64,000 nucleotides of DNA from an uncultured Alphaproteobacteria bacterium (GTDB lineage: Bacteria > Pseudomonadota > Alphaproteobacteria > RF32 > CAG-239). The stretch spans positions 82-64,081 of the forward strand of contig CALXTJ010000002.1 of the NCBI GenBank assembly GCA_944391375.1, read 5' to 3'. The notes under the pieces are model-generated. The model was not told the DNA's origin and ran no database searches. It saw only the letters and a program-made list of their open reading frames with translations. The first letter of the stretch is position 1. The number at the start of each line of letters is the position of its first letter. Positions 15,190 through 50,787 of this stretch are shown here, one piece after another. The translations under genes and the position numbers were made by a program.

Positions 15190-15345
15190 TGATTTTATCT
15201 AAGCCGTCCGCTTGCACTCACTGCGTTTGTTTTTCCTAACATCTATATTCTCCTTATGAAGTCTAAAACATTTCTCATATATTAAAACACATATATAAGG
15301 ATATAAACAAGCTCAAAAGTGTCCGAAGATGTCCGAAAGTGTCCG
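15190..15345 (-). repeat. decayed inverted copy of the 33700-33900 element (leader, 3 x GTGTCCGAA-type 10-bp units, and a truncated MLGKTN... 5' gene fragment)
   Basis: The reverse complement aligns with 33729-33900: CGGACA units, TTGTTTAT...CCTTATAT block, RBS AAGGAGAA, then ATGTTAGGAAAAACAAAC... (MLGKTNAVSASGRLR*). Confidence 0.6.
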
Positions 15346-15496: not shown

Positions 15497-15572
15497 TGGT
15501 GAGCCCGACGGGATTCGAACCCATGACCCTTTGATTAAAAGTCAAATGCTCTACCGACTGAGCTACGAGCCC
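15497..15572 (-). tRNA. tRNA-Lys (anticodon UUU)
   Basis: Reverse complement GGGCTCGTAGCTCAGTCGGTAGAGCATTTGACTTTTAATCAAAGGGTCATGGGTTCGAATCCCGTCGGGCTCACCA folds as a cloverleaf with TTT anticodon, GTTCGAATCC T-loop and encoded CCA. Confidence 0.85.
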
Positions 15573-33699: not shown

Positions 33700-33803
33700 T
33701 TTAGCGTTTTTTAATAATATAAAACAATCGGACACTTTCGGACACTTTCGGACATTTTCGGACACATTTAAGCTTGTTTATCGCCTTATATGTATTTTAA
33801 TAT
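33700..33803 (+). promoter_or_regulatory. regulatory element: leader TTTTTTAATAATATAAAACAAT + 4 tandem 10-bp units (CGGACACTTT x2, CGGACATTTT, CGGACACATT) + putative promoter TTGTTT-N18-TAATAT
   Basis: Units at 33729-33768. The -35-like hexamer starts 5 bp after the array, the same geometry as the cassette promoters at 42976 and 47502. Confidence 0.5.
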
Positions 33804-33844: not shown

Positions 33845-35764
33845 ATGTTAGGTAAAACAAATGCAATAAACAAGTTCGTTAGCGGCGGAAGCGGAGATGT
33901 CGTTCAAGCCGTAAATCTTACCGGCAATTTGATAAATGCCGGTGATAAGGTATGGATAAATCAAAATACACAAATCGCAGGGAGTAATTTTCAAGTTAAA
34001 ACTACTAATAGTACTGCTATTAACTCTTACGGATTTGTTATTGATCCGACCGGTACCAGAGCTTGGACTTATAATATAGTCTACGATATATCCTCATCTG
34101 AGGCTACACAAATCAGTACCACAACTAATGCACAAGTTGATGTTGTACGATACGGTAAAAACGGGGAAATGTTTTTTAACAATGTACGGTGCGATGCCGG
34201 GGCATATTACCAATTTTCCAATACAAGCTCTCGTTATGTTGGCGATAATTATAAAACCAATCCGACCAAAATTGGTGTTGACGAATTTGATTTGAATACC
34301 GGAGCGGTTTTAAACACCTATTTGAGTACCAATACTTGGGAATCCAAAAACAACTATTTAAGTATGATAATGAGGAACGGTAAGTTTTATTATTTTAATA
34401 CATTAACAAATGGTGGCGGTATTTATGAAATAACTGATAATGAATTTGTAAAAACAAATGACATATCAGGGTGTGATAAAAGTTTTTATATTATAGGTTT
34501 AACATCAGATGATAAATATTTAATTTATTCTACATCACCCATACCTGCACAACGTTCGGGAAGAATTTATTTGGCCGAATTTGTTGATGATTATACAATA
34601 AGAACCTTGAGTGATGATGAATTGCCGATAGATTTGCAACCTTATTTCTTGGATAGTTGTACACCAACATTCAATCCCAACAACAATGTTTTATGTATTG
34701 GAGCAAACGGAAGCTATATGTTTTTACAATATGCCAATAATAATTGGACTAAACTTAATATTGATATTCCCACGAGCAATATATATAGGACATTATCTAT
34801 TTCACAAGATTTAAGCAAAGTTGGAGTGGGTAATTTCAACGGTAGTTCCGGAATTGTCTACAATATTACGGCTCAGGACGGATATGTATTGCAGAGCTAT
34901 TCGCCGACCAGAATTTCTGCCAATTCGCTAACCGGATTTGCCAATGCCGATATTGCCAATTTTGCAACTGGTGAGATAAATACAGCCTTAAAAGCTCATG
35001 TCTCTTATCCCGAACCTGAGCCTGAACCAGGTACCGAACAGTACGAAATTAACCAAGATACCCAAGGAGGTATAGTTTTCGTCGGTGATTTACAAACAGT
35101 GGCCGGTCCTTACGGTAATACGGTTGCTCAAATAACCGATACGACTCGTCTGACTTTGGGCAATGACGGGGCAAATATTTTTGCGGGAATGTTTGCTGAT
35201 ACTCAAACTGCCGACTGTTTTCGAATAAAATTTAAAATGCCGCGTAAAGGCATAAGTTCAGGAGGAACTTGGTACGCCTTATCGGATAGTTTGTCGCAAA
35301 ATGTGGACAATCCCACAGACGGTTGTGTCCGTTTTGGTTTTACGGCTTCCTGGGATGAACAAAATTCTGAAATTGATAGTCAATTAGTATCTTTTATAAT
35401 GGAAAGATATTCTTCCGAACAGGGTTGGGAAACCCCAATGAGAGTTGTCATGCCTGATTTTAAGCTGAACACATGGTATGATGTTATGTATTATTACGGA
35501 AAATATGCTGATTGGGAAATTGAAGAAAACGGTAATAGCGGATATTGCCTGCTCATAAATGTATATAATGAGGGAGGAGAGCTTATAGGAAGAGAAGTAT
35601 ATGATAATTATCCCAATGGCAGTATAGTTTCAACCGAAAATGTCCAAATCGGATATCCGATATATGCAACATCATATTTTTATATTGATGTAGATTTATC
35701 ACAAACCGGTTTTCAATTACTTGACAGTTGGGTATGGCGTCCGGTTAAGGAAATCAACAAATGA
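33845..35764 (+). CDS. large N/T/S/Y-rich hypothetical protein (possible phage tail-fiber/receptor-binding-like or surface protein)
   Basis: 639-aa ORF with strong RBS AAGGAGAAAA. It shares its upstream element with the cassette locus; a decayed copy of its 5' end lies near tRNA-Lys. Confidence 0.4.
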   Translation: MLGKTNAINKFVSGGSGDVVQAVNLTGNLINAGDKVWINQNTQIAGSNFQVKTTNSTAINSYGFVIDPTGTRAWTYNIVYDISSSEATQISTTTNAQVDVVRYGKNGEMFFNNVRCDAGAYYQFSNTSSRYVGDNYKTNPTKIGVDEFDLNTGAVLNTYLSTNTWESKNNYLSMIMRNGKFYYFNTLTNGGGIYEITDNEFVKTNDISGCDKSFYIIGLTSDDKYLIYSTSPIPAQRSGRIYLAEFVDDYTIRTLSDDELPIDLQPYFLDSCTPTFNPNNNVLCIGANGSYMFLQYANNNWTKLNIDIPTSNIYRTLSISQDLSKVGVGNFNGSSGIVYNITAQDGYVLQSYSPTRISANSLTGFANADIANFATGEINTALKAHVSYPEPEPEPGTEQYEINQDTQGGIVFVGDLQTVAGPYGNTVAQITDTTRLTLGNDGANIFAGMFADTQTADCFRIKFKMPRKGISSGGTWYALSDSLSQNVDNPTDGCVRFGFTASWDEQNSEIDSQLVSFIMERYSSEQGWETPMRVVMPDFKLNTWYDVMYYYGKYADWEIEENGNSGYCLLINVYNEGGELIGREVYDNYPNGSIVSTENVQIGYPIYATSYFYIDVDLSQTGFQLLDSWVWRPVKEINK

Positions 35765-36856: not shown

Positions 36857-38623
36857 ATGATGATAAATTTTGAAGACAGTAAATCAATAGGCGGCAACAT
36901 TTGGGTAAAGACGCCAATCAATGAACGGCAGGCCGAAGCTTTGGCTCAATCGGGTAATTTGCCGTATATCGTGGCCGGAATTTTGGCTTCAAGAGGTATC
37001 GGCAGTGAATCTTTAGAAGCCTTTATTAACCCCAAGTTGCAAAACTTGATGCCTAATCCGTCGTGTCTTAAGGGTATGGATGTTGCTGCCAAGCGTTTGG
37101 CCGAAGCCGTAACCAATAATGAAGCAGTGGGCATTATCGGCGATTATGATGTTGACGGAGCCACCTCCAGTTCGGTTTTACGCAAATTTTTAGAATTCTT
37201 CGGCTTAAAAGTTATTGTTCATATTCCCGATCGTGAAGAAGGTTACGGCCCCAGTACTCAGGCTTTTGCCGAATTTAAAACGGAGAATATTAAACTTGTA
37301 GTAACTACCGACTGCGGCACCACGGCTTTTGATGTTTTAGACAAGGCCGCTGAGGATGGCTTTGAGGTTATTGTACTTGACCACCATGAAGCGGAAACCA
37401 GACTTCCTGAGGTGTTGGCAGTAGTTAATCCGAAGCGTTTGGATGAAGATAACGACTATCCGTATTTAAAATATTTAGCAGCTGTGGGTGTGGTGTTTTT
37501 AACCGTGGTTGCCGTTAATCGGGAACTTAAGAACAGCGGATTTTATACCTCTCGTCCGGCTCCCGATTTATTAAAATTTTTAGATATGGTAGCCTTAGGC
37601 ACGGTTTGTGATGTTGTTCCGTTGTTGGGGTTAAATCGGGCTTATGTTAAACAAGGCCTTAAAATTATGTCTCTGCGACAAAATTTAGGTATTAAAGCTT
37701 TAAGCGATGTTGCCGGTCTTTCCGAAGCTCCGACGGCGTTTCATTTGGGTTATGTATTAGGTCCACGCATTAACGCCGGCGGCAGAGTAGGCGATTCCTC
37801 CATAGGTAACAAGCTGTTATGTGCCAAAACCGATGATGAAGCCCGAAAGTTGGCTGAAGCTCTTAATCAGTTTAATCTGGAAAGAAAGGATATTGAATCT
37901 TATGTGTTATTGCAGGCCATTGAAATACTTGAAGGACAGCCTCAGGAGTATCCGATAGCTTTTGTTTTTGGCAATGATTGGCATCAGGGAGTTATCGGTA
38001 TTGTGGCCGGAAAGCTCAAAGAGCGTTATAATGTCCCGGCATTTGTTATGTCCATAGAAGCCGATGAGGTAAAGGGTTCGGCTCGTTCCGTTCCCGGGGT
38101 GGATTTGGGAGCTTTGGTTATGGCTGCCAAAGAGCAAGGACTGCTTACCAAAGGCGGAGGACATACCATGGCGGCGGGTTTTTCGTTAAATGAGGATAAA
38201 ATTGCCGATTTTAAAAAGTTTGCCGGAGAGTTTGTTAAGCAAAAATTGGGTGATGAACGATTAGTGCCGATTATTGAATATGACGGGCTGATTTCTCTTA
38301 AAGGTGCCACTTTGGATTTGGCTGAAAAATTGCAACTCTTGGAACCTTTCGGAGCCGGAAATCCCGAGCCCAAAATCGTAATTGAAAATGTTAAATTTTC
38401 TAGAGCCTCAATTATCGGTAACGGTCATGTTAAATGCTTTTTAACATCGGATACGGGAGGCTCTCTTAAGGCTATTTCTTTCCGGTGTGCCGATACCGAA
38501 GTGGGTAAAACCATACTCAACGCCAGAGGTGAAAAATTTAATATTATAGGCGTTTTACATAAAGATGTTTGGCAGGGCAATTCCTCGGTGCAGTTTATTA
38601 TTGAAGATATTGCCAAAATTTAA
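36857..38623 (+). CDS. recJ: single-stranded-DNA-specific exonuclease RecJ
   Basis: DHH motifs GDYDVDGATS and LDHHE, plus a DHHA1 region with GGHTMAAG. Confidence 0.85.
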   Translation: MMINFEDSKSIGGNIWVKTPINERQAEALAQSGNLPYIVAGILASRGIGSESLEAFINPKLQNLMPNPSCLKGMDVAAKRLAEAVTNNEAVGIIGDYDVDGATSSSVLRKFLEFFGLKVIVHIPDREEGYGPSTQAFAEFKTENIKLVVTTDCGTTAFDVLDKAAEDGFEVIVLDHHEAETRLPEVLAVVNPKRLDEDNDYPYLKYLAAVGVVFLTVVAVNRELKNSGFYTSRPAPDLLKFLDMVALGTVCDVVPLLGLNRAYVKQGLKIMSLRQNLGIKALSDVAGLSEAPTAFHLGYVLGPRINAGGRVGDSSIGNKLLCAKTDDEARKLAEALNQFNLERKDIESYVLLQAIEILEGQPQEYPIAFVFGNDWHQGVIGIVAGKLKERYNVPAFVMSIEADEVKGSARSVPGVDLGALVMAAKEQGLLTKGGGHTMAAGFSLNEDKIADFKKFAGEFVKQKLGDERLVPIIEYDGLISLKGATLDLAEKLQLLEPFGAGNPEPKIVIENVKFSRASIIGNGHVKCFLTSDTGGSLKAISFRCADTEVGKTILNARGEKFNIIGVLHKDVWQGNSSVQFIIEDIAKI

Positions 38624-39261
38624 AAGTACCCTTTACGGTCCATTAAGCTTAATATAATTACCAGTAAGTATAAACCGCTTAATATGCCCACCGTTATCCA
38701 TAAAATTTGCTTATCGGTTAATACATGACTGATAGAGGTAACACCCAGAGCCGCTCCGGTAATTTTGAAATCGTCGGCCGGTTTTTCATGCAAAATGGTA
38801 ACGGCTATTTGGTCGCCGGGGTTTAAAAAATCAAACCCGATTATAATGTCTCCGCGGTATAAACTCAATTTGACATCTATGGCCGAAGAAGTTAATTGCT
38901 TATCAAGAGTGTAGTGCACCATTTGAGCATCTTTAGGAACAATAATACGAATAGGATCATGGTCAATGCGGGAAACATCGGAACCGGCCAGCGGTTGTTG
39001 TCCGTTATTTTGTAAAATAACTACACTTTGATATAAATCTCCGTACTCTTTATCCTCCACCACAACCTTAAATTTGTTGTTGTTTTGTGATGATATAAAA
39101 CTGTGGGTATTGGTATCGTATTCTAAAATCGGACGATTGATGTAAAATTGATAAATACCTATGATAAGTGCCGAAAAACCGATAAAAAAAGCTCCGACAT
39201 TTCCGGTTAAAAAATTCCAGGTTTTACGAGAAACTTTTTTAATTACGCCTGTATGAAACAT
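38620..39261 (-). CDS. hypothetical membrane-anchored protein (N- and C-terminal TM)
   Basis: ORF with hydrophobic termini. Confidence 0.35.
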   Translation of the reverse strand: MFHTGVIKKVSRKTWNFLTGNVGAFFIGFSALIIGIYQFYINRPILEYDTNTHSFISSQNNNKFKVVVEDKEYGDLYQSVVILQNNGQQPLAGSDVSRIDHDPIRIIVPKDAQMVHYTLDKQLTSSAIDVKLSLYRGDIIIGFDFLNPGDQIAVTILHEKPADDFKITGAALGVTSISHVLTDKQILWITVGILSGLYLLVIILSLMDRKGYF

Positions 39262-39325
39262 TTTTCTTCTCCTTACTTGCTGCTATATATGCCGTAAAAT
39301 AAGTTTTTAAAGGAGAAGCAATCTT

Positions 39326-40339
39326 TTATCGGCAGTTTTGCACTTTTGATAACCGAACAGAATTGCCGTTAAGGTTTTCCATGGCGGCAATTGTTTCAGG
39401 CTTTACTTTCAGCACATCGGCAATAAAATTTAAATCTTTACCCATTTTTTGGGCTGCCGGTTTAAAAGTAATATTCCAAGGAGTTTGAGCTTGAAGCTCT
39501 TGCTTTAAGGCTAACAGTTCGGCATTGTTATGATTTAACAGTTGTGAGGCCAAATACCATGTTGCCAGCCATTCATGAGGGTAACGATAATCACTTTGAG
39601 CATTGCGTCCGTCTTCAAGGCGGAATTCTCCGCTATAATTTCCATAATTTTTTAAGGCTTCAAACAAAGGCATTTTAATAAAGCGAGCGGCTTCGGAATT
39701 ATGTTCGTGGCGATTGATATCGGCAGAATTTGCAACTAAGCGGTTTAGTAAATCTTCTGGGGTTTTGAGTAAATGGCAATAGGGAGTAATGGCCCAGGCC
39801 ATACCTTTGCCGTTCCAACGATTGATAATAAAATTGTCATCTTTAATATCCGGCATTCCGACAAGCTGCATTTTTTCAAAAGGAATATCATAATCGTATA
39901 TACCCAGATTATTTAGCTCTTCACGAGTTTCCCGTATAACATTATTTTTACGGATAACATTGATGTCATCGGTTATAACAACATTTCCGTCTTTTAATAT
40001 GACATCATCTTTATAATCAAGGAGTTGATGCTTTTTATGATCCGGAAGCAAGTTAAAATAGTCTTTATCCGTTCTCTCGGATAGTCCGCCCAAAGCACCG
40101 ATACCGTCAGGTTCAGCTGTTTTGGCATTTAAGCGGGAGATAAGACCGACATACACATTTTTAAACTGTTCGGAAAAATTTTTACCGCCTGTAATATCCC
40201 CGCAATACAAAGTAACATTTGCTCCCGAACTTTTGATTAAATTACGATTTTTAAGATCTGCCAAAATTTGTTGACGAGCTTGACCTTTAGGGGCGTTTTT
40301 AAGGGCGTCTAAGACTTCTTGTGCTGACGAATATAACAT
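39326..40339 (-). CDS. hypothetical protein
   Basis: 337-aa ORF. The imperfect Nudix-like stretch IRETREELNNLGI is insufficient for assignment. Confidence 0.35.
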   Translation of the reverse strand: MLYSSAQEVLDALKNAPKGQARQQILADLKNRNLIKSSGANVTLYCGDITGGKNFSEQFKNVYVGLISRLNAKTAEPDGIGALGGLSERTDKDYFNLLPDHKKHQLLDYKDDVILKDGNVVITDDINVIRKNNVIRETREELNNLGIYDYDIPFEKMQLVGMPDIKDDNFIINRWNGKGMAWAITPYCHLLKTPEDLLNRLVANSADINRHEHNSEAARFIKMPLFEALKNYGNYSGEFRLEDGRNAQSDYRYPHEWLATWYLASQLLNHNNAELLALKQELQAQTPWNITFKPAAQKMGKDLNFIADVLKVKPETIAAMENLNGNSVRLSKVQNCR

Positions 40340-40447
40340 AAAAGTTTCCTTTACATTGGGGCCATAAATTATTTGCGATTATAGCTAAAATTTAAAAAAA
40401 AGAAAGGGGAAAAAGTATCTCCCCTTAATTAAATTTAAGCTCGTAAT

Positions 40448-40993
40448 TTATTTTACGGTACGGCGGAAATAAACATATTCCATAATGGCCAGTACTCCGA
40501 ATAAAACGATATATAAACCCAAAATGGTAGTTATGGCAATAGCTCCAAGTCCGGGATAAGTTAGCATTAAAAAGCCGAATATAATGCCGGCCAGTCCCAA
40601 GACCATGCTTAATTGCCAAGGAAGCATAAATTTTTTCAAACGGTAGGAACTTACCAGTTGAGCCGCACCGATAGCCAAAATCCACAAAGCCAGGAAGATA
40701 GGCAAGGTAGCAGCAGTTACACCCAAATTGGCAACAAAAATAATACCCAAGATGATATCAATTAAGCCGACAAACATATGCCAACCCGAGGCAAAGTCTA
40801 AAGATACGGCGACATAGCCGATACCCGCCAAAATTAAGCCGACACCAATGTATAAGCTTAAAGCCATGAGGCTGGCCATAGGATTAAACCATACCATTAA
40901 ACCTAAAGCTACAAGTAATATTCCCGAAAACAAGTGCCACAAACCGACACGGGGAGAATTTAATTCTTGTATTTTTACTTCAAACATTTTCAA
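40448..40993 (-). CDS. HdeD/DUF308-like acid-resistance-type membrane protein
   Basis: Repeated GxxLxxxG TM-pair pattern: GILLVALGLMVWFNP...LYIGVGLILAGIGYV. Confidence 0.5.
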   Translation of the reverse strand: MKMFEVKIQELNSPRVGLWHLFSGILLVALGLMVWFNPMASLMALSLYIGVGLILAGIGYVAVSLDFASGWHMFVGLIDIILGIIFVANLGVTAATLPIFLALWILAIGAAQLVSSYRLKKFMLPWQLSMVLGLAGIIFGFLMLTYPGLGAIAITTILGLYIVLFGVLAIMEYVYFRRTVK

Positions 40994-41140
40994 CTCCTTT
41001 TTTATTTATCACATATAATTATGTAGTGTTTGTTTTTGTAATTTTCTATAGTTCTAAAAAACTTTAAGAGAAACATCTTCAAAAAACTAAAACGATAATT
41101 ATCTTTTTTAAGGCCAACTTTTTTAATAAGGAGAAGATAA

Positions 41141-41530
41141 ATGAACAAAAAACTTTTAGCTTTAACAACGGCTTTAACGGTAGCTGTTTCAGGTGCGGCA
41201 TTTGCCAAGTGCGATTATGAAGATTGTATGAAAATGATGCATCGTGACATGGGTGGATTTGTACAATCACAGGCCGATATTTCAACTGTCAAGCAAGCTA
41301 TGGAAATGCCTGATGACGCAATAGTTACCTTAAAAGGCAATATTGAAAAGCAGGTTAAAAAAGACAAATATATTTTTAAGGATGCCACAGGAGAAATGAC
41401 GGTTGAAATCGGTAAAAAAATTTGGGCCGGACAAACCGTAAGCCCGAGTGATACGGTAGTTATAACCGGTGAAATTGATAAAGACTTTGAACATAGAAAA
41501 TTAGATGTTGAAAGATTAACCAAAGAATAA
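41141..41530 (+). CDS. YgiW/YdeI (BOF, OB-fold) periplasmic stress protein
   Basis: Signal peptide, then DDAIVTLKGNIEK...DKYIFKDATGEMTVEIGKKIW...VVITGEIDKDFEHRKLDVERL. Confidence 0.65.
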   Translation: MNKKLLALTTALTVAVSGAAFAKCDYEDCMKMMHRDMGGFVQSQADISTVKQAMEMPDDAIVTLKGNIEKQVKKDKYIFKDATGEMTVEIGKKIWAGQTVSPSDTVVITGEIDKDFEHRKLDVERLTKE

Positions 41531-41622: not shown

Positions 41623-42171
41623 ATGACAAATAAAAAATATAATCCATTTGCGGATATGTATAACTTCAATGCTAACAGCAGTAACTGGGTACAAAGGTTA
41701 GGGCATAATGCGGACTTTTATAATAATCCGCTGGGTTACAACAGCTCACCCACCCCCAGACCTTATGACAACACAACTGCCTCTGGTATAAATAACAGCT
41801 TTAATATCAATAACCGGCAGCCGTCTTCAAGCGGATTGGAAAGTTACAATCAACCTCAAAAGCAGCAGTATACTAGCCCTAAAGTAAAACCCTTTACTTC
41901 ATGGGATATTGCTTTATCAGCTCTTGAAGGATTTGGAGAGGGAGCAGTCGGCGGAATAGAACGAGATCTAAATACATCATCAAAAGGATTATATGATTTG
42001 GGTAGTGATCTTTTTTTTGACGGAAGCTATGAAAAAAGGCAAAAAGAACTTGAAAAACTGGCTCACGAAGCAAATTTGGATAAATTATACAAATATTCAA
42101 ACTATATTATAGATAACTCAATTGAGTATTTAATAAAATATATGTTTATAAAAAATCTGGGAATTTTCTGA
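41623..42171 (+). CDS. cassette protein A: conserved 48-aa N-terminal module (MTNKKYNPFADMYNFNANSSNWVQRLG...) plus variable C-terminal domain
   Basis: N-terminal 48 aa about 98% identical to the 47657 gene. Residues ~70-105 (SGLESYNQPQK...SALEGFGEG) are shared with the 46159 ORF. Confidence 0.5.
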   Translation: MTNKKYNPFADMYNFNANSSNWVQRLGHNADFYNNPLGYNSSPTPRPYDNTTASGINNSFNINNRQPSSSGLESYNQPQKQQYTSPKVKPFTSWDIALSALEGFGEGAVGGIERDLNTSSKGLYDLGSDLFFDGSYEKRQKELEKLAHEANLDKLYKYSNYIIDNSIEYLIKYMFIKNLGIF

Positions 42172-42249
42172 AATAATTTGCCTTGACATTGATTATCATA
42201 TTTTTTAAATCTGAAGATTATAGTAGGGTAAGTTTTATGGAGAATGTTG

Positions 42250-42783
42250 ATGAAAAAAATTACTGTATCAGATATTAACACCTGTATTTGGGGTGAAAGT
42301 CCGTTATCTTTTTATTTTTCCTTTGATGGAGTTTTTAATCGCTTGCAGTTTTTCGGAAGCATTGCTACATTAAACATTATCCTAAATATTATAAATGCTG
42401 CAGGAATATATATTTTGACGATGTTTGGTTATGCATTATGTCTTTATGCAATGCTGGCAGCAGCTCAAAAGCGTATGCATGATATGAATAGGCAAGGCAG
42501 TGCACTGATTTTGTTACTCTCTGTTAGTTGTATTTTAACAGGGGCTACGGCTCAATTGCATTTTTTGGGAGAAGTTGACATTGCCGAGAATATATACCTC
42601 AAAAACATTTTCGGAATATCGTTTTTAGTATATTTAGTTTTGCAAGCATTTTTATTGTTCATGCCCGGAGCAAAGAAGAAGGATATGAGCAAAAGAAGTC
42701 CGTTATTAAAAAATCCTCCGTTGTATTTTTTAATATGCGTGATAATTTATGCCATAGTCGCCTATTTTATCAGAGATTTATAG
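42250..42783 (+). CDS. DUF805-like inner-membrane protein (candidate cognate/immunity-like gene)
   Basis: YFSFDGVFNRLQFF and YAMLAAAQKRMHDMNRQGS resemble DUF805 motifs. The C-terminal 39 aa are identical to the 44135 protein. Confidence 0.45.
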   Translation: MKKITVSDINTCIWGESPLSFYFSFDGVFNRLQFFGSIATLNIILNIINAAGIYILTMFGYALCLYAMLAAAQKRMHDMNRQGSALILLLSVSCILTGATAQLHFLGEVDIAENIYLKNIFGISFLVYLVLQAFLLFMPGAKKKDMSKRSPLLKNPPLYFLICVIIYAIVAYFIRDL

Positions 42784-42845: not shown

Positions 42846-42970
42846 GGGAGAGGGAAATCGCTCTCAAAACGGACAAAAATGGCTTTTTTAATGACAAAAT
42901 CGGACACTTTCGGACGGTTCCGGACACTTTCGGACAGTTTCGGACAGTTTCGGACACTTTCGGACTGGAC
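42846..42970 (+). repeat. conserved leader (GGGAAATCGCTCTCAAAACGGACAAAAATGGCTTTTTTAATGACAAAAT) plus 7 phased 10-bp tandem units CGGAC(A/G)NTTT
   Basis: Units at 42901-42970: CGGACACTTT, CGGACGGTTC, CGGACACTTT, CGGACAGTTT, CGGACAGTTT, CGGACACTTT, CGGACTGGAC. Confidence 0.7.
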
Positions 42971-42975
42971 ATTTT

Positions 42976-43006
42976 TTGTAAAAAAAGGCTATAAAAAAGC
43001 TATAAT
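42976..43006 (+). promoter_or_regulatory. sigma70-like promoter TTGTAA-N19-TATAAT directly downstream of the 10-bp array
   Basis: Identical copy at 47502-47532. Confidence 0.45.
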
Positions 43007-43147
43007 CGTGAGAAGTTGTGCAAGCTGCTTTAAAAGAAAAGAGTGATGTTAAAAATGGTCGCAATACTATTGACAGTAGTTTAAGTGATAACTATGCTAA
43101 CGAAATAGGACGGCTGTTAGGAACAAAATATCGCAAAGGAGATTGTG

Positions 43148-43273
43148 ATGCTCTCATCCAACAATACATTAACAAAAATTGGTAAGTGGCTTATTGTATC
43201 TTTTGTTTTCGTTGCGGGGCTTGTGCTTACTGCCCTTATTAGTTTGAGCTGTGTCTACATCTTCAGCTTGTAA
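43148..43273 (+). CDS. small hydrophobic peptide (41 aa, one TM) downstream of cassette promoter
   Basis: MLSSNNTLTKIGKWLIVSFVFVAGLVLTALISLSCVYIFSL; below the 60-aa ORF-track cutoff. Confidence 0.2.
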   Translation: MLSSNNTLTKIGKWLIVSFVFVAGLVLTALISLSCVYIFSL

Positions 43274-44106: not shown

Positions 44107-44134
44107 ATAAGGTTAATCATATAAGAGGTGATTT

Positions 44135-44671
44135 ATGGAAGAAGGAACAAAAAAGCCGGAAGAAGATGACGCATTGTTCAAAGAGGATGCCAAGACCATA
44201 TATTTTTCATTTGAAGGGGTATTCGGTCGCATACAATTTTTTATAGTAGCGGTTACCCTCGGTGGTTTTATGGATTTGATGAGTACGGGAAATAATATAG
44301 TACTCGTAGCCATAGGCACAGCCATAGTATTTTATGCGATGCTGGCAGCGATTCAAAAACGCAGTCGTGATATGAATATTGGCGGTAGTTTGTTTATTTT
44401 ATTGTATTCTCTGAGTTTTCCGATAAGTCGGATGATGTTATACGGTAGGGATACTGGAAATCCGATAATTATCCATAACGACATAATTCGGACCAGTTTT
44501 TACGGAGCGTTAATAGGATATTTGATAGTATCATTGCTTTTAGTGCTTATACCCGGAGCAAAGAAGAAGGATATGAGCAAAAGAAGTCCGTTATTAAAAA
44601 ATCCTCCGCTGTATTTTTTAATATGCGTAATAATTTATGCCATAGTCGCCTACTTTATCAGAGATTTATAG
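44135..44671 (+). CDS. DUF805-like inner-membrane protein, paralog of 42250..42783
   Basis: YFSFEGVFGRIQFF, YAMLAAIQKRSRDMNIGGS, and an identical C-terminal 39 aa. Confidence 0.45.
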   Translation: MEEGTKKPEEDDALFKEDAKTIYFSFEGVFGRIQFFIVAVTLGGFMDLMSTGNNIVLVAIGTAIVFYAMLAAIQKRSRDMNIGGSLFILLYSLSFPISRMMLYGRDTGNPIIIHNDIIRTSFYGALIGYLIVSLLLVLIPGAKKKDMSKRSPLLKNPPLYFLICVIIYAIVAYFIRDL

Positions 44672-44689
44672 TCTGTAAGAGATTACCAA

Positions 44690-44720
44690 AGAGGGGGTAA
44701 AAGCTCCCTCTTTAGTGTTT
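44690..44720 (+). terminator. cassette boundary terminator hairpin, copy 2
   Basis: AGAGGGGGTAAAAGCTCCCTCT plus TTAGTGTTTT. Confidence 0.45.
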
Positions 44721-44773
44721 TAAAAGCAGACACAATATATAGTAATTTTGTAACAAATATATTATGCACAAGT

Positions 44774-44800
44774 GCCGAAGCTCATAACTTCGGTATTTTT
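44774..44800 (+). terminator. conserved stem-loop GCCGAAG-CTCATAA-CTTCGGT plus T-run, copy 1 (just before RBS)
   Basis: Same element at 47602 and 48959. Confidence 0.45.
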
Positions 44801-44823
44801 TATATAAAAGAAAGGAAAAAATT

Positions 44824-44940
44824 ATGACAAATAAACTAATTACCATGGCTGGTAAATATGCAGTTAAAAAAGTTCGTAATAAAACCGTTAATAAGGCCAT
44901 GGAAAAAATAAGCGAGCCATATGAAAAATTCAAAAAATAG
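44824..44940 (+). CDS. small ORF (38 aa) starting MTNK..., possible decayed remnant of the conserved N-terminal module
   Basis: First 12 nt (ATGACAAATAAA) identical to the 41623 and 47657 genes. Preceded by the conserved stem-loop plus RBS. Confidence 0.2.
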   Translation: MTNKLITMAGKYAVKKVRNKTVNKAMEKISEPYEKFKK

Positions 44941-45145
44941 GTTTTCGGCATAAAACCTCTAAATGTTGGGGAAAGAGAAACCATAAAATGTTTACAAAAT
45001 CGTCATAATACCTTAGATTATTGTAAGAATATAGGAAACAAGGCAAGGAAAGCTTATCAAAAATCCGTAAAATATAGGTAACTTTTTATTAAAACCAAAA
45101 TACGCATCAACACGGACAATATGCACTGTATAACGGGAAGATAAT

Positions 45146-45406
45146 ATGAAAAAGATAATACTGTTTATAATTGGTCTTATGTGTATACCGCCGATATTGG
45201 GTTATTTGACGACATATGTAAGTAACAATCCGGAATATGAAATATACACCGGATTTTGGGGAGTCCTGTATCTATTTATTTATATTCTTTTTCCTTTGTT
45301 ATATAAAGGGAAAATAAAACAAGCTATGAATAGATATGCTTTTTATGCCTTGTTGTACGGCATTTTGTTTCTGATAATAAATATATTGCTCATTTGCTTT
45401 AATTAA
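45146..45406 (+). CDS. small membrane protein (3 TM), hypothetical
   Basis: ORF with hydrophobic helices. Confidence 0.3.
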   Translation: MKKIILFIIGLMCIPPILGYLTTYVSNNPEYEIYTGFWGVLYLFIYILFPLLYKGKIKQAMNRYAFYALLYGILFLIINILLICFN

Positions 45407-45464
45407 ATATGATGAAGCTGTAAAAAGCAGCAAGATTATAATGGTAAATAGAAAGGATAGAGAA

Positions 45465-45965
45465 ATGAAGAATATAATATTTTTACTGTTGGCAGTACTA
45501 ATTCCGACATTGAGTTTGGCAGCAGAAGAAAAGTCAATATTTACATATGAAGCAGAAAAATGTTCCGGTGAAGAAGATGTATTTATACGAGGTTTAGAGG
45601 AAGAATTAGCTAATTGTAAAATTCAAATGCCGGATAATCCATCTACGGTAGATATGAATGAAACTTATTACAAAGTCGGCGATTGCTCTATTGCTGTAGC
45701 CAATAAACTTTTTGATAGAAATTACAAAAAGTATAATGAGCAGGTAAAACAGGATTTTGATGCACTTGTCAAAGCATTTTATGCAAATGCTCATGATATG
45801 GTTCAACATAGCGATTTTGGACTTTTAAGAGGAGGAACTATGTACAATACGGAAGCCATTGCTACGGGGGCTTTTTGGATTAGAGATGTGGTAAAAGAAT
45901 ACCTTTATCAAGCACGAATGGAATGCGATGATAAGGCAGGATTTGATTCACTGGATATAGAATAG
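45465..45965 (+). CDS. secreted hypothetical protein (signal peptide)
   Basis: MKNIIFLLLAVLIPTLSLAAEEK signal; RBS AGGATAGAGA. Confidence 0.35.
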   Translation: MKNIIFLLLAVLIPTLSLAAEEKSIFTYEAEKCSGEEDVFIRGLEEELANCKIQMPDNPSTVDMNETYYKVGDCSIAVANKLFDRNYKKYNEQVKQDFDALVKAFYANAHDMVQHSDFGLLRGGTMYNTEAIATGAFWIRDVVKEYLYQARMECDDKAGFDSLDIE

Positions 45966-46062
45966 ATTATTTTAATCAAACAATGAAAAAGAGACTTGTA
46001 AAAGTCTCTTTTTTGTGCTTTTAAAGAAAGGAAAAATAAGTTAGGCTAGATAAAATGATATG

Positions 46063-46180
46063 GAAATCGCTCTCAAAACGGACAAAAACGGCGTATTTAA
46101 TGACAAAACCGAACAAAATTGAACAATTCTGAACAAAATTAAACAAAAGTGAACATTTTTGAACAAAATTGAACAATCTT
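46063..46180 (+). repeat. conserved leader plus variant phased 10-bp array (GAACAAAATT-type x7)
   Basis: Leader GGAAATCGCTCTCAAAACGGACAAAAACGGCGTATTTAATGACAAAACC. Units at 46111-46180: GAACAAAATT, GAACAATTCT, GAACAAAATT, AAACAAAAGT, GAACATTTTT, GAACAAAATT, GAACAATCTT. Confidence 0.65.
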
Positions 46181-46788
46181 TAAGCGGATTGGAAAGTTAC
46201 AATCAACCTCAAAAGAAGCAGTATACTAACCCTAAAGTAAAACCCTTTACTTCATGGGATATTGCTTTATCAGCTCTTGAAGGATTTGGAGAGGGTATTA
46301 TTGCTGTTCCTAATAGATCTTTTGAAATACTAAAAAACAGTCCTGATCGCCTATCTTCTCTGACAGATACGATGTATAATTTAGTTACAAATTCAAAAAA
46401 TTTATTTAATAATGAGCAAGAATATAAAACTAGAGATCCTGTTTCAACAAATCAATCTACCTTGGAAAATGTTATAAATTATTTGAAACAATACCAATTA
46501 GATAGAGAAATACAACTTTCAGATATTAACAAGCATCAACATATGAGCTGTTTATCAGGAAAGGATGGATTGAGTTTAGGTCTTTTAGGCTTAACAGTGG
46601 GTGCAGGAAAGGAAATAGCGGAGTTTTTCAAAAAATCTTTCAGTCCACAACAAAGAAAAGCATATGGTGGTATTAGCGGTATACTTGCAGACGGTATTAA
46701 AGATATGAATAATAATGTCAAAGGATTTAAACATTCTTATGTTGATGGTAAGGAATGTTATCCACTATTAAAAGAACCATTGCCATAA
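46159..46788 (+). CDS. orphan 5'-truncated cassette C-terminal module (shares a 113-bp junction region with the 41623 gene, then a distinct C-terminus)
   Basis: 46182-46294 is nearly identical to 41829-41943 (...SGLESYNQPQKKQYTNPKVKPFTSWDIALSALEGFGEG). The annotated start lies inside the repeat array, so the N-terminal module is missing. Confidence 0.4.
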   Translation: MNKIEQSLSGLESYNQPQKKQYTNPKVKPFTSWDIALSALEGFGEGIIAVPNRSFEILKNSPDRLSSLTDTMYNLVTNSKNLFNNEQEYKTRDPVSTNQSTLENVINYLKQYQLDREIQLSDINKHQHMSCLSGKDGLSLGLLGLTVGAGKEIAEFFKKSFSPQQRKAYGGISGILADGIKDMNNNVKGFKHSYVDGKECYPLLKEPLP

Positions 46789-46855: not shown

Positions 46856-47314
46856 ATGATCATTAAACTGCAGAATGTTTTGTTTGTATTGGGAGTTACT
46901 TTTGTTATACAACTGCTATATATGTTGTTGATGTTTATAATTTTTTTATTAAATAACAATCTAGCAGTTAATAATGAAGAGCTTTTTTTATTTGTTTTGG
47001 ACAATGTTTTATTTGTATCCATAGCCTTAGGAGCCATTAACCTATTTAGTAATAGGTTGTCTTTATATATTTACGAAAAAAGTATAAAAAAAATACCTAA
47101 TTTACGGTGGTATTGTATGTTCTTTAGCTGGACTGTCATTATCCAAAAATTCATACCCGAATTTGAAATCTTTTATGCTGTTTTAATAAGTTGTATAGTT
47201 GGTGCATTGTGTTATCCTGATCGTACCTGGAAACAAAGAGTTAGATATTCATTGATATTTGTTGCTATTTTATTGATGTATTTCTTGGGAGGTTTTACCG
47301 ATTTTGAAAATTAA
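46856..47314 (+). CDS. small polytopic membrane protein (candidate cognate/immunity-like gene of orphan module)
   Basis: 4 TM helices, immediately downstream of 46159..46788. Confidence 0.35.
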   Translation: MIIKLQNVLFVLGVTFVIQLLYMLLMFIIFLLNNNLAVNNEELFLFVLDNVLFVSIALGAINLFSNRLSLYIYEKSIKKIPNLRWYCMFFSWTVIIQKFIPEFEIFYAVLISCIVGALCYPDRTWKQRVRYSLIFVAILLMYFLGGFTDFEN

Positions 47315-47371: not shown

Positions 47372-47496
47372 GGGATAGGGAAACCGCTCTCAAAGCGGAC
47401 AAAAACGGCGTATTTAATGACAAAATCGGACACTTTCGGACGGTTCCGGACACTTTCGGACATAATCGGACAGTTTCGGACACTTTCGGACTGGAC
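47372..47496 (+). repeat. conserved leader plus 7 phased 10-bp tandem units CGGACNNTTT, copy 3
   Basis: Units at 47427-47496: CGGACACTTT, CGGACGGTTC, CGGACACTTT, CGGACATAAT, CGGACAGTTT, CGGACACTTT, CGGACTGGAC. Confidence 0.7.
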
Positions 47497-47501
47497 ATTT
47501 T

Positions 47502-47532
47502 TTGTAAAAAAAGGCTATAAAAAAGCTATAAT
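47502..47532 (+). promoter_or_regulatory. sigma70-like promoter TTGTAA-N19-TATAAT, copy 2
   Basis: Identical to 42976-43006; lies 5 bp after the array. Confidence 0.45.
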
Positions 47533-47567
47533 CGTGAGAATTTGTGCAAACTACAAAATCTCACGAT
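47531..47567 (+). promoter_or_regulatory. perfect 9-bp inverted repeat ATCGTGAGA-N19-TCTCACGAT overlapping the -10/+1 region (operator-like)
   Basis: Read directly from the sequence. Only the left half-site is present in copy 1 (43005-43013). Confidence 0.4.
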
Positions 47568-47601
47568 TATATTTTAACTTAAACTAAAATTTTAACAACA
47601 A

Positions 47602-47632
47602 ATACCGAAGCTCATAACTTCGGTATTTTTTT
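47602..47632 (+). terminator. conserved stem-loop ATACCGAAG-CTCATAA-CTTCGGTAT plus T7, copy 2 (attenuator/terminator-like, directly before RBS of 47657)
   Basis: Perfect 9-bp stem plus T-run, between the promoter and the gene. Confidence 0.5.
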
Positions 47633-47656
47633 ATTTAAAAGAAAGGAAAATAAATC

Positions 47657-48379
47657 ATGACAAATAAAAAATATAATCCATTTGCGGATATGTATAACTT
47701 CAATGCCAACAGCAGTAACTGGGTGCAAAGGTTAGGATATAATGCGGATTTTTATAATAATCCGCTGGGCTATAACAGCTCTCCCACCCCCAGACCTTAT
47801 AAAATCGCCAGTAATGATATACCAGTGGTAAATAACAATAAAAAAGTTGATTACTCAGCTTATGGAGAGGGTTTTAGTAAAGAATTTATTGATAAGATGC
47901 TTGATGATAAACGTTTCAATAATATCATGAACAGTAGAGTAATAAATAACGAAGGTGGATACGTTAATCATCCTAATGATTTAGGAGGTGAAACAAAATA
48001 TGGGATTACTAGTAGATGGTATCCTAATGAAGATATAAAAAACCTAACAAGAGAAAGGGCTAATGCTATTTTATACAGAGACTATTGGCAAAAAACAAAT
48101 ATTCATCAACTTCCCGATGAATTTGCCGATATTGTTTTTGATGACAGCATTGTTCAAGGACAGCCAACAGCTATTAGAAATTTACAAAAAGCTTTGGGTG
48201 TTAATGATGATGGTATCATCGGTCCCAAAACATTAAAAGCATTTCAGCACCAAAATCACAATATTATACGAACAAAATTTATAAAAAATGTTAATGATGT
48301 TGAAAATGAAAATATAAAGAACAACCCTTCTCAAAAAGTTTTTGAAAAGGGTCATAGAAACAGATTTAACGCTTATTAG
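47657..48379 (+). CDS. cassette protein with conserved N-terminal module plus GH108-like lysozyme domain and PG_binding_3-like domain
   Basis: N-terminal 48 aa shared with 41623. GGYVNHPNDLGGETKYGIT resembles the GH108 signature (EGGYVNDPxDxGGxTxxGIT). C-terminal ...ALGVNDDGIIGPKT resembles a peptidoglycan-binding domain. Confidence 0.6.
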   Translation: MTNKKYNPFADMYNFNANSSNWVQRLGYNADFYNNPLGYNSSPTPRPYKIASNDIPVVNNNKKVDYSAYGEGFSKEFIDKMLDDKRFNNIMNSRVINNEGGYVNHPNDLGGETKYGITSRWYPNEDIKNLTRERANAILYRDYWQKTNIHQLPDEFADIVFDDSIVQGQPTAIRNLQKALGVNDDGIIGPKTLKAFQHQNHNIIRTKFIKNVNDVENENIKNNPSQKVFEKGHRNRFNAY

Positions 48380-48837: not shown

Positions 48838-48958
48838 TTATCCTTATGCATAAAACCGACGAAGAAAGTTTAGATTTAATCCATAATATAAGCAACAACT
48901 TTTATAGTTAAAGCACAAGAAAATAATATTTTAACTCAAACTAAAATTTTAACAACCA

Positions 48959-48989
48959 ATACCGAAGCTCATAACTTCGGTATTTTTTT
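48959..48989 (+). terminator. conserved stem-loop ATACCGAAG-CTCATAA-CTTCGGTAT plus T-run, copy 3, directly before RBS of portal gene
   Basis: Identical to the element at 47602. Preceded by the shared block TTAACTCAAACTAAAATTTTAACAACCAAT. Confidence 0.5.
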
Positions 48990-49008
48990 ATAATAAGAAA
49001 GGAAAATA

Positions 49009-50787
49009 ATGTTCGCATATACTCTTGAAAAAGAAAGCTTTATGTCAACGGGAAATCCCGATGATAAGCGGGCAGTAGTTCAAGATGTGGTGGATTTATT
49101 CACATCTTGGGATACTGTTCGTACCAAACAAAAAAATATTGCCGATAAGTTGCATTCGGAAATCTATCTGGATGACCGAAAAAAAACTTATGTCCCGGAA
49201 GATGACGAATGGAAATCGGATATCCATCTTAATAAAATCTATTCGTTATTCCAAACACATCAGGCCTACATTTGGGATAATATCTATTCTAATGTGGAAA
49301 ATATGTTTGATGTTGAAGGAATTGATGATCTTTCGGCACAAACGGCTTTGTTGCAAAAACAAAAACTGGTTAATACCTTTTATAATATCGGTATTCAACG
49401 CAAGCTGGATACCGCTATTGAGCATTTAGACAGTGTCGGTGAAATTTGTTTGTTTATCGGTTGGCAAAAAAAATATAAACAAATCCGCCGTCGTTTGGAT
49501 AAATTCAGCTCCTCTGCCGATAAGCCCTTGCTTACTCAAGGCTTGTTCGGGGTGTTTAATCAGGAAATTTATAACGGAGCCGATGTTGAGGCCATCAACC
49601 CGCTCAATTTGGTATTTGACCCCAGGGTTAATCCCGACGATAAGGAAAAATGGGATGCCTGTGGTAAAATTATTAAATCATGGGAAACTTATCAGTCGGT
49701 AGCTTCCAATAAATTGTATAATCTTAAAAAAGAAGAGCTTGATGATTTGCATAAAATGTTAAACTCTCCTTCCAAAGATGAAGATCGTTCGGAAACCGAT
49801 AAAACCGATGATGTGGTTGATAGCGATAGGGTTGAGGTTTTACAATATTGGGGGGATTATGTTACCCCCAAAGGCAATGTTTTAAAAAACTGGCATATCG
49901 TAGTTATCGGTCGTAAATATCTGGCGGTGTTTGAACCTAATCGCTGGGTAATTAACCCGATTATCAATATGGCTTTGTTTAGGGATATCAACAGTAAACG
50001 AGGTATTCCCGAATTATGGTCCATTTACGATATATGTAAGGAACAGGAAAATAAAGTAAACTTACAAAATGATGCTCAATCACTTAACCTAAATCCTCCG
50101 GCCTATGCTCCGGAGGGTTTTTTTAAGGAGGAAAAAGTAAAACTCTTCCCCGGTAAACAAGTGGAATACAAACAGGGTCTTGAAGATCCCGGAGCAATCA
50201 TCAAAATGCAGTTTCCGTTGTTCAGCAATGAAAATATTATTCAGTATTATGACAATACGGCTTCAAGCGTAAGCGGTATTTTTCCCAATATGCAGGGACA
50301 ACAGGAAATAAGCAAAGCCACGGCCACCGAAATAAGCATTAAGGTTCAGGGACAAACCACGCGTTTGGGTAAAACTTTGGATACCATCAAGCAAAATGTT
50401 ATTGTCCCGATGGTGCAAAAAGTTGCCGAACTTGAAGCTAATATGAAATTCGGCGATGAGGTTTTAAAGCTTAACATTTTGGGGTATCCGGTTACCAAAA
50501 CCATTGATGATGTGGTGCGTCAGGGCAATTATGAATATCGTTATACCGATAATACCGGTATTCAGAAAAAACTTAACACCAATCAAACGCTTATTCAGAT
50601 TTTTACGCAAATCTGGAATGATGAAAGCGTCCCCTTAAACAAACTGCAAATTGTTAAAGAAGTACTGCGTAATGCCGGCATAGAAAATACCGAAAAGTTT
50701 TTTCTAAGCCAAAATCAAATTCCGGCAGCCAATCAAAATACAGCGGCTGCCGGTGTCAACAATAATCTTTTACCCGTTCAAAAGTAG
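49009..50787 (+). CDS. putative phage portal (head-to-tail connector) protein
   Basis: 592-aa protein heading a module with scaffold-like and capsid-like genes in podovirus order. Assigned from size, position and composition only. Confidence 0.45.
   Translation: MFAYTLEKESFMSTGNPDDKRAVVQDVVDLFTSWDTVRTKQKNIADKLHSEIYLDDRKKTYVPEDDEWKSDIHLNKIYSLFQTHQAYIWDNIYSNVENMFDVEGIDDLSAQTALLQKQKLVNTFYNIGIQRKLDTAIEHLDSVGEICLFIGWQKKYKQIRRRLDKFSSSADKPLLTQGLFGVFNQEIYNGADVEAINPLNLVFDPRVNPDDKEKWDACGKIIKSWETYQSVASNKLYNLKKEELDDLHKMLNSPSKDEDRSETDKTDDVVDSDRVEVLQYWGDYVTPKGNVLKNWHIVVIGRKYLAVFEPNRWVINPIINMALFRDINSKRGIPELWSIYDICKEQENKVNLQNDAQSLNLNPPAYAPEGFFKEEKVKLFPGKQVEYKQGLEDPGAIIKMQFPLFSNENIIQYYDNTASSVSGIFPNMQGQQEISKATATEISIKVQGQTTRLGKTLDTIKQNVIVPMVQKVAELEANMKFGDEVLKLNILGYPVTKTIDDVVRQGNYEYRYTDNTGIQKKLNTNQTLIQIFTQIWNDESVPLNKLQIVKEVLRNAGIENTEKFFLSQNQIPAANQNTAAAGVNNNLLPVQK

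Follow-up and report, generated by a model that had tools for sequence, protein, structure and literature searches.

A candidate orphan toxin/immunity module, probably cut off from its promoter by one deletion, in an island of phage origin from an uncultured gut bacterium

The window analysed here (the whole stretch of DNA, 64,000 nucleotides in length) carries at 45986-46788 a beheaded copy of a small, putative toxin gene, whose promoter, start and first ~68 codons are gone and which lies next to an intact putative immunity gene. We consider it likely that this orphan is a promoter-less toxin/immunity module that arose from one deletion and was re-partnered through a coding segment shared with its paralogues, the immunity gene being kept. 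Among related contigs the record is unusually clear, with an intact allele in place, many lesions of the same putative toxin and one scar that is found with two toxin ends.

Results

An island of small genes with a common N-terminal domain

Between 41.6 and 48.8 kb, the window holds a row of small genes that have an N-terminal domain in common (MTNKKYNPF...NPLGYNSSPTPRPY...GFGEG) and differ at their C-termini (CT), each followed by a gene for a small membrane or secreted protein. The elements of this island that surround the orphan are as follows; related contigs are designated by L numbers and their proteins by P numbers.

41623-42171, plus strand: paralogue B, full-length, 182 aa, with the N-terminal domain, a shared segment at 41824-41942 and another CT
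42855-43024, plus strand: GGACA-type leader, array, promoter and left hairpin arm, cut at 43024/43025 (a second scar)
43018-43185, plus strand: D', a 55-aa remnant of a putative 195-aa SAA-domain toxin whose full-length form is present in L003, L009, L010, L011 and L012
45441-45965: gene H, the upstream neighbour of the orphan cassette
46856-47314, plus strand: J, a 152-aa multi-pass membrane protein and putative cognate immunity protein, intact in every arrangement examined
47379-47656, plus strand: complete regulatory cassette, the only one in the window, with leader, array, boxes, hairpin, stem-loop and RBS
47657-48379, plus strand: K, the common N-terminal domain with a GH108 lysozyme domain and PG_binding_3 (Pfam, PHROGs)

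The family looks toxin-like, as suggested by the GH108 and PG_binding_3 domains of K, by the SAA domain of D, which in the full-length protein scores above the Pfam threshold, and by the small membrane or secreted partner genes. Pfam and PHROGs searches returned no family for CT(I) (the C-terminal domain of the orphan), for J or for the N-terminal domain, and a second protein search sorted the N-terminal domain family into 6 clusters, all of them unnamed and all from ENA metagenomes.

The island adjoins phage head genes, with a portal or adaptor at 49009 and a major head protein at 52017. The head proteins are 98-99.7% identical to those of a prophage in the GTDB representative MAG that carries L012 and L013; this is the only MAG among the GTDB representative genomes to hold such loci, and both of its loci are GAACA-type. 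The repressor and terminase arm of that prophage is absent from the window, which has RecJ and other apparently non-phage genes instead. Megablast of 41.5-48.9 kb against the INPHARED phages gave no match, and the capsid protein is <35% identical to that of any deposited phage. The host is an uncultured gut bacterium, labelled Alphaproteobacteria by its submitters.

Two array types and a single complete regulatory cassette

A complete cassette of this island consists, in order, of a terminator, a leader, six to seven 10-bp repeats, a promoter, a 5′ hairpin, a terminator-like stem-loop, an RBS and the coding part. The coding part in turn comprises a conserved N-terminal domain (~107 codons, ending GFGEG), a variable C-terminal putative toxin domain and a putative immunity gene. 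Every array of the island is preceded by the conserved leader. Tandem Repeats Finder placed canonical TCGGACACTT arrays at 42900-42965 and 47426-47491, and GRACA-N5-GRACA-N5-GRACA was counted 9 times in the window, compared with 0 in 100 shuffles.

The cassette at 47379-47656 contains six to seven GGACA units (47426-47491), TGGACA-N17-TATAAA / TATAAT boxes, a 5′ hairpin at 47533-47565, a terminator-like stem-loop at 47600-47628 and an RBS, and can be viewed as a display of what the orphan copy has lost. An earlier note on this DNA had credited the other array copies in general with a promoter, an inverted repeat and a stem-loop. This is true of the 47426 copy only; the 42900 copy, too, has been cut short, at 43024/43025, beyond which lies the 55-aa toxin remnant D'.

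Array typing covered the window and the loci of each contig, with the L017 and L023 arrays assigned by reading. Eleven contigs carry GGACA arrays only (the window, L002, L004-L007, L011 and L014-L017, the orphan array of the window and L007 excepted), and six carry GAACA arrays only (L003, L009, L010, L012, L013 and L023). Behind arrays of either type, the same promoter boxes and stem-loop normally come at a constant spacing, and the sole mixed case is the GAACA orphan array of the window and L007. Since that array is the only exception to type and has no promoter after it, we read it as a foreign-type relic with nothing to regulate, the GAACA array being the normal form of a sister lineage. 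An Rfam search of 41-49.2 kb, which includes the 5′UTR elements absent from the orphan, produced eight low-scoring hits, none of them near its gathering threshold.

The orphan copy joins an array directly to the interior of a gene

Read from 5′ to 3′, the orphan is composed of a leader, a variant array, a 119-bp shared segment and a different C-terminal domain, after which comes J. Its features are:

45986-46013, plus strand: hairpin and T-run, a palindromic stem followed by TTTTTT, directly 3′ of gene H
46062-46108, plus strand: conserved leader GGAAATCGCTCTCAAAACGGACAAAAACGGCGTATTTAATGACAAAA, aligned with the 42855 and 47379 copies, L003, L002 and L014
46103-46176, plus strand: variant 10-bp array, GAACA-type, 7.4 units (Tandem Repeats Finder and per-contig array typing)
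46159-46788, plus strand: called ORF of 209 aa (gene finders), with its start inside the array
46176-46177, plus strand: deletion scar, where the end of the array meets codon ~68 of the putative toxin gene
46177-46295, plus strand: shared coding segment (..SGLESYNQPQKKQYTNPKVKPFTSWDIALSALEGFGEG), 97.5% identical to 41824-41942 over 119 nt (BLAST and alignment)
46296-46788, plus strand: putative C-terminal toxin domain CT(I), reading frame open

The units of the variant array are TGAACAAAAT-like, in contrast to the canonical TCGGACACTT. That no promoter, inverted repeat or stem-loop attends this array, as the earlier note had observed, agrees with our reading of the sequence and with array typing of the window, which found no promoter box, inverted repeat or stem-loop 3′ of 46176. 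The same note had the interior of the 41623 gene resume directly after the array at 46181; the homology is indeed immediate, but it starts four bases before that position, at 46177. The shared segment corresponds to codons ~68-107 of the 41623 gene, and identity to that gene stops exactly past the GFGEG codons. Upstream, the hairpin at 45986-46013 probably insulates the orphan from transcription arriving from that side; the terminator scan puts this hairpin on the minus strand, and its assignment to the plus strand is our own reading.

The start of the called ORF had been described as an ATG at 46159 inside the array, and while it does lie inside the array, the codon is TTG. An in-frame TGA is found at 46150, 9 nt upstream, and the first in-frame ATG comes ~72 codons further downstream. 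On reading the sequence we found no Shine-Dalgarno for the 46159 TTG, whereas real genes of the island have AAAGGAAA 7-9 nt before their ATG, and a promoter scan showed no excess of promoter-like sites over shuffled sequence. CT(I) itself has an open frame and differs by 1 residue from the intact 270-aa alleles described below. The contig index has no exact match to the 209-aa ORF, and an AlphaFold2 model of the intact 270-aa toxin, built on an 8-sequence alignment, had a mean pLDDT of 33.7, too low for use. CT(I) also gave a weak BLASTP match to the SAA-domain toxin D (E = 0.01), centred on a KHxxxxC motif, from which we draw no conclusion.

Related contigs carry an intact allele at the orphan position

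A protein search with the 209-aa ORF retrieved the same C-terminal domain on longer proteins, including four 270-aa variants with a complete N-terminal domain (P0012, P0017, P0019 and P0022), which are encoded in L014-L019. In L014, the position of the orphan is occupied by a complete cassette with a 270-aa gene, and the gene order is otherwise that of the window: H, terminator, leader, GGACA array, promoter, hairpin, stem-loop, RBS, ATG, 270-aa toxin, J, K, L and portal. The flanks of the window and L014 are 94-100% identical, and the array region is only 74% identical. Intact 270-aa alleles are also present in L015-L019. The locus is therefore not arranged identically in all related genomes; alternatives of the kind that the earlier note had envisaged were found on comparison, namely the intact L014 allele and the CT(8) versions in L020 and L019 considered below.

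The array/gene boundary has the features of a deletion scar

The proposal that a real break falls at the array/gene boundary, and that what lies beyond it is an orphan module without start signals, was supported. As judged from alignments, the boundary is the scar of a single illegitimate deletion, and we reject its interpretation as a point of homologous exchange. In three-way alignments, the parents share ~1 nt of microhomology at the 46176/46177 join. The left side is the end of a GAACA array, and the last 37 nt of this array match the one at L003 10573-10642 without a difference; the L003 array runs on into a promoter, unlike the orphan array. The right side starts with TCTTTAAGCGG at 46177 and matches ..CAGCCGTCTTTAAGCGG of full-length genes. 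Pairwise alignment with the intact L014 allele revealed 361 nt absent from the window, with L014 carrying insertions of 105+256 nt after window positions 46164/46176, and the sequence lost in these 361 nt includes the promoter, the 5′ hairpin, the terminator-like stem-loop, the RBS, the ATG and the N-terminal codons.

The 22-mer that spans the junction occurs in 4 contigs of different assemblies, the window, L007 (ERZ28613582), L019 (ERZ24773421) and L020 (ERZ28613962), and the scar is identical in all of them. L007 matches the window at 100% over 7,396 bp, junction included. A search of IMG/VR with the junction 22-mer found nothing. The JGI metagenomes yielded one match, in L022, which on reading proved to be unrelated sequence and a chance match. 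We also considered and discarded a TTTAA motif at deletion endpoints, a post hoc candidate that is found just 3′ of both window scars and is missing from 5 other junctions in related contigs.

One scar is attached to two C-terminal ends

The earlier note had further suggested that the arrays and the conserved coding segment both act as recombination handles. Our comparisons uphold this for the coding segment but not for the array edge: the 119-bp segment is a genuine substrate for recombination, through which C-terminal modules change partners, whereas the array edge offers only one inherited scar with ~1 nt of microhomology. A single 119-bp haplotype, present in 13 copies, is linked to four CT types, and cassettes with different CTs are 95.6% identical in the shared segment versus 88.9% in the 119 nt directly upstream.

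In the window and L007, the scar and shared segment are followed by CT(I)-J, but in L020 and L019 they are followed by CT(8). L020 is 100% identical to window 45939-46299, a stretch that runs from the last part of H through terminator, leader, complete variant array and scar to the shared segment. Past GFGEG, L020 has CT(8) and then sequence 99.9% identical to window 44111-45993 (F, an 85-aa ORF, G and H), the whole forming a 2,481-bp unit whose 55-bp terminal overlap indicates a circle or a tandem repeat. In L019, the intact 270-aa gene and J come first, and then a mosaic leader, the scar behind an array shortened by 50 bp, and CT(8); the 50 bp missing from this array lie between 17-bp direct repeats. 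The arrays are part of a repeated regulatory cassette, within which exchange is seen only in the leader, as the L019 mosaic, and the array shows internal contraction only.

In L023, CT(8)-F stands as a native pair, full-length and preceded by a GAACA-type cassette, which explains the array type of the scar. Partner genes travel with their C-termini: F lies behind CT(8) in the two loci whose sequence reaches beyond the CT(8) stop (L020 and L023), and J follows CT(I) in 17 of the 17 loci carrying CT(I). Elsewhere in the island, the first position after the BOF-domain gene (41141-41530) is held by CT(B), CT(6) or the D remnant, depending on the contig. One scar attached to two toxin ends constitutes a direct record of C-terminal module exchange via the 119-bp segment.

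Toxin lesions and the retained partner gene J

Besides the window scar, the putative CT(I) toxin has at least six further independent lesions in related contigs, making at least seven in all:

L002: 13-bp deletion and promoter loss
L001, L003 and L008-L010: 5′ truncation at NPLGYNSS, fused to a membrane ORF
L005: 5-nt gap
L004 and L006: deletion of the window-equivalent of 45437-46530
L011 and the fusion protein P0007: deletion of 44388-46670
P0021: frameshift

J is intact beside the first five of these lesions, a conservation that is in part a matter of ascertainment, as L002-L011 were retrieved by the exact J sequence. The ratio pN/pS is 0.73 for the toxin versus 0.25 for J, a weak contrast that is built on few differences and in which J is itself the retrieval key. 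Other putative toxins of the island are damaged as well, with D reduced to the 55-aa remnant in the window and bearing an internal out-of-frame deletion in L004, and B bearing an in-frame deletion in L002. The pattern favours the loss of toxins and the retention of their partner genes.

The toxin fragment is most likely silent in the window, and we infer that the element kept is the downstream putative immunity gene J. Decay of the module itself is not borne out by the open CT(I) frame, which is equally compatible with a maintained silent reservoir. It counts against a silent toxin kept for its immunity gene that the toxin promoter is gone, so that transcription of J in the window would need another source; the orphan may be transcribed by read-through past the H terminator or from an internal promoter. 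It is plausible, by analogy with the Rhs orphans (PMC3967940), that expression of the orphan requires recombination into a full-length gene, and the 41623 gene is a potential partner for this.

Discussion

A proposed history and its alternatives

In the history that we propose, one illegitimate deletion would have removed the promoter, the 5′UTR, the start codon and the first ~68 codons, so that the array end came to abut the coding segment. The GAACA array is native to the sister lineage, and for this reason the scar probably first arose in a GAACA-type cassette carrying CT(8) and immunity F, an order of events that comes from the array type only. A later homologous crossover in the 119-bp segment would then have placed the scar before CT(I)-J, and a crossover in the leader would be needed only for the separate place of the scar after J in L019.

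The orphan might instead be a silent cassette held in reserve, from which a RecA-dependent crossover with an expressed gene such as 41623 would graft CT(I)-J onto a promoter and N-terminus and so switch the toxin. Several features would suit such a reservoir: the open CT ORF hardly differs from the intact alleles, the orphan and the 41623 gene are co-oriented, 4.35 kb apart and have 119 bp in common at 97.5%, of which ~64 bp (counted by eye) at the 3′ end agree without interruption, and CTs are swapped behind a fixed 5′ context in the population, both at the scar, with CT(I) or CT(8), and at the position after the BOF-domain gene. Precedents also exist, in PMC3150448 and in the Salmonella Rhs orphans, where crossover through 522 bp of 95% identity re-expresses the orphan (PMC3967940). 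However, the predicted product, a 41623 N-terminus joined to CT(I)-J, was found in no contig, most population variants of the CT(I) toxin are destructive lesions, and the crossover would remove six intervening genes, putative immunities among them; 119 bp is also short next to the Rhs case. We therefore regard a reservoir as unlikely. We are somewhat more doubtful that the island is an actively shuffling, phage-borne cassette system, and no graveyard, in which scar-sharing modules would be re-partnered via the 119-bp segment and the leader. Promoter-less modules may be duplicated and looped out; L020, whose two sides match the window at 99.9-100%, may have caught this under way, and a hypothetical activator with two allelic specificities, for GGACA and GAACA arrays, may set cassette expression. 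If this were true, a foreign-type array would keep an acquired module silent until recombination supplied a cognate cassette.

It is very improbable that the 46159 ORF is translated independently into a protein that lacks the N-terminus and has a separate function, for instance in an intracellular toxin-antitoxin-like pair with J. Gene finders do predict the 209-aa ORF, as well as its counterparts of 126 and 129 aa in L020 and L019, the frame is intact, and Rhs orphan pairs are reported to behave as type II TA-like modules (PMC7043789). Yet its TTG lacks a Shine-Dalgarno, the region shows no promoter-like excess and has a hairpin and T-run upstream, and the array that contains the start is shortened in L019, where an ATG in the leader is called, so that the start is not conserved. 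Programmed site-specific shuffling, with the 10-bp arrays as recombination sites in the manner of a shufflon or integron, would fit the arrays that flank every cassette, the deletions that end in or beside arrays or the promoter (L002 9056, L011 2968 and L004 9519) and the assembly of L020 as a circle or tandem unit. We hold it to be extremely unlikely nonetheless: no recombinase domain was found in the ten ORF products scanned from 41.6-48.8 kb (the 85- and 86-aa ORFs at 44824-45078 and 45146-45406 left out), the array/gene join is one identical scar in all carriers, with no recurrent joins, the other deletion endpoints have no common motif, and the arrays are direct repeats at a fixed distance upstream of a promoter, as expected of a regulatory site. 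A chimeric contig, joined across repeated cassette sequence, is a natural concern in metagenomic assemblies with a locus full of 100-500-bp repeats, and L020 bears witness to the difficulty for the assembler. We reject such an artefact, to which we attach almost no probability, because the same junction 22-mer with its flanks recurs in L007, L019 and L020, from different assemblies; in addition, L007 is unbroken in its identity through the junction, and the GAACA array is unique in the window, leaving no repeat to collapse across. A module beheaded by one deletion and re-partnered through the shared segment remains our preferred reading.

Comparison with known systems

Orphan cdiA-CT/cdiI and rhs-CT/rhsI modules are described in Poole et al. 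2011 (PMC3150448) and Koskiniemi et al. 2014 (PMC3967940). Taken as sequence, the window module has the makings of an orphan toxin-CT/immunity module as defined in PMC3150448, its toxicity and neutralisation being putative. It contains a 3′ toxin fragment that includes the conserved pre-CT stretch (46177-46295, compared with 41824-41942), it has no initiation signals and lacks the N-terminal ~68 codons, a linked small gene directly downstream travels with the CT (J with CT(I), F with CT(8)), and full-length genes with the same CT are found in other strains (the 270-aa proteins of L014-L019). The likeness to CDI/Rhs orphans thus takes in the conserved pre-CT stretch, which could be used for homologous recombination, the missing initiation signals, the immunity gene directly after, the position downstream of and co-oriented with a full-length paralogue, and the full-length versions of the same CT elsewhere.

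There are differences too. The full-length proteins here are small (182-427 aa) and have an unrelated, lineage-restricted N-terminal domain; searches of them for CdiA/Rhs features with Pfam found no VENN, two-partner secretion, haemagglutinin or YD repeats or DPxGL, and the boundary motif is GFGEG. Each gene normally has its own promoter cassette, which makes the island a row of independent genes, unlike the main gene plus orphans of CDI/Rhs loci. The window orphan also retains a dead array of another lineage's type, the location is phage-derived, and the homology is only 119 bp. The cassette architecture, with its two lineage-specific 10-bp array types, its promoter and its 5′UTR with a terminator-like hairpin, is in our view the more original subject.

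Maf loci have a conserved N-terminal domain and promoter-less alternative 3′ cassettes in genomic islands, and the window has the same features. A polymorphic CT and a downstream immunity gene are likewise common to the window and to MafB of Neisseria (Jamet et al. 2015, PMC4287609). Unlike MafB, the proteins of the window have no DUF1020 N-terminal match in Pfam, and host, regulation and phage context differ. SitA cassettes of Myxococcus ride on prophage-like Mx-alpha elements and spread horizontally. They resemble the island in being polymorphic toxin/immunity cassettes (Vassallo et al. 2017, PMC5562445). The SitA toxins are lipoproteins and depend on outer-membrane exchange for their delivery, whereas no signal peptide or lipobox was found on reading the window proteins. 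The pilS loci of Neisseria are promoter-less, 5′-truncated copies that have short segments in common with the expressed pilE, to which they can donate variable sequence. The window orphan is similarly promoter-less and 5′-truncated, with a short segment common to a full-length gene; unlike pilS/pilE, it shows no sign of directed high-frequency gene conversion or of a G4 or sRNA initiator, and the variation is between strains or samples.

Orphan toxin/immunity modules are thought to serve both as immunity repertoires and as reservoirs of toxin diversity. Here the phenomenon is met in an undescribed family of putative small toxins, in a phage-derived element of an uncultured human-gut bacterium, and the window orphan is a fresh example of the known CDI/Rhs/MafB-like type of orphan module.

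Two array types share one promoter arrangement

The 10-bp arrays of the toxin/immunity cassettes fall into two types: 11 contigs have GGACA arrays and 6 have GAACA arrays (window, L002-L017 and L023, the L numbers denoting related loci from other assemblies). Each contig is uniform in type, apart from the GAACA-type orphan, an array joined directly to a beheaded toxin C-terminal module. The window's island carries three:

42900-42965, 10-bp array
47426-47491, 10-bp array
46103-46176, 10-bp array (orphan)

As a rule, identical promoter boxes lie at a fixed spacing 3′ of the arrays, in GGACA and GAACA types alike, and the -35-like box, TGGACA, 17 nt 5′ of TATAAA (47515-47520), is itself similar to the array unit. 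From sequence, the two array types look like allelic specificities of a putative DNA-binding activator.

Short GGACA arrays also occur outside the island, among housekeeping genes:

33730-33769, + strand, short GGACA array
15315-15344, - strand, short GGACA array

Conserved sequence of another kind, AGCTTGTTTAT..CCTTATAT..TTTTAATATATGA, lies 3′ of both. The first array precedes a 639-aa gene (33845-35764) that has no family match, and the second precedes a 15-codon remnant of that gene's start (MLGKTNA...), which adjoins tRNA-Lys (15497-15572).

Cassettes lose their regulatory regions repeatedly

The window bears a second scar, at 43024/43025, where the 42855 cassette runs from its promoter and left hairpin arm straight into the final 55 codons of a toxin (43018-43185). 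The source of this remnant is an SAA-domain toxin, 195 aa at full length in L003 and L009-L012. The motif TTTAA lies directly 3′ of both window scars, but its placement is probably chance, because five further junctions left by deletions in related contigs lack it at that position. Independent deletions within regulatory cassettes were found in L002 (9056), L011 (2968) and L004 (9519); in these, the array or leader is joined directly to the stem-loop, such that the promoter is lost and the gene kept. The regulatory cassette is either prone to deletion or frequently silenced.

The cassette 5′UTR (47533-47660), which has no match in Rfam, folds into a 5′ hairpin and a terminator-like hairpin immediately 5′ of the RBS (-28.4 kcal/mol, z = -5.8). 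Similar stem-loops occur elsewhere in the window:

44752-44835, stem-loop similar to the 47533-47660 5′UTR
48923-49006, stem-loop similar to the 47533-47660 5′UTR

The portal gene has the cassette's stem-loop in front of it, and together with the hairpin pair this suggests control by attenuation or antitermination.

Toxin and immunity modules vary in copy and partnership

The ends of L020 (2,536 bp, ENA ERZ28613962) overlap exactly over 55 bp; the contig represents either an excised circle or a tandem duplication of 2,481 bp, made up of the C-terminal toxin module CT(8), F, the 85-aa ORF, G, H, leader, array and scar, with 99.9-100% identity to the window on both sides. The island gene F (44135-44671) is 49% identical to C (42244-42783), both being DUF805-like membrane proteins. 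Because F partners CT(8) in L020 and L023, yet in the window directly follows E with no toxin between, F is an orphan immunity-like gene there.

Some toxins have two tandem copies of the N-terminal module, with ..NFNANSSNWVQRLGHNADFYNNPLGYNSSPT.. repeated, which brings their length to 278-427 aa, while the window's K (240 aa) has one copy. Those with the tandem module are:

L014, 6309-7304
L012, 9689-10972
L013, 10001-
P0035, protein
P0040, protein

The neighboring phage element resembles a prophage

In the window, the phage genes for head and tail share 98-99.7% protein identity with a prophage whose left arm holds an S24 repressor, terminase and three or four further genes. Window 36857-41530 was compared with L012 1-5551 and L003 1-9239. 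Since RecJ, a BOF-domain gene and others replace this arm, with its repressor and terminase, in the window, L002, L004, L006, L007 and L021, the window's element may be a defective or domesticated prophage.
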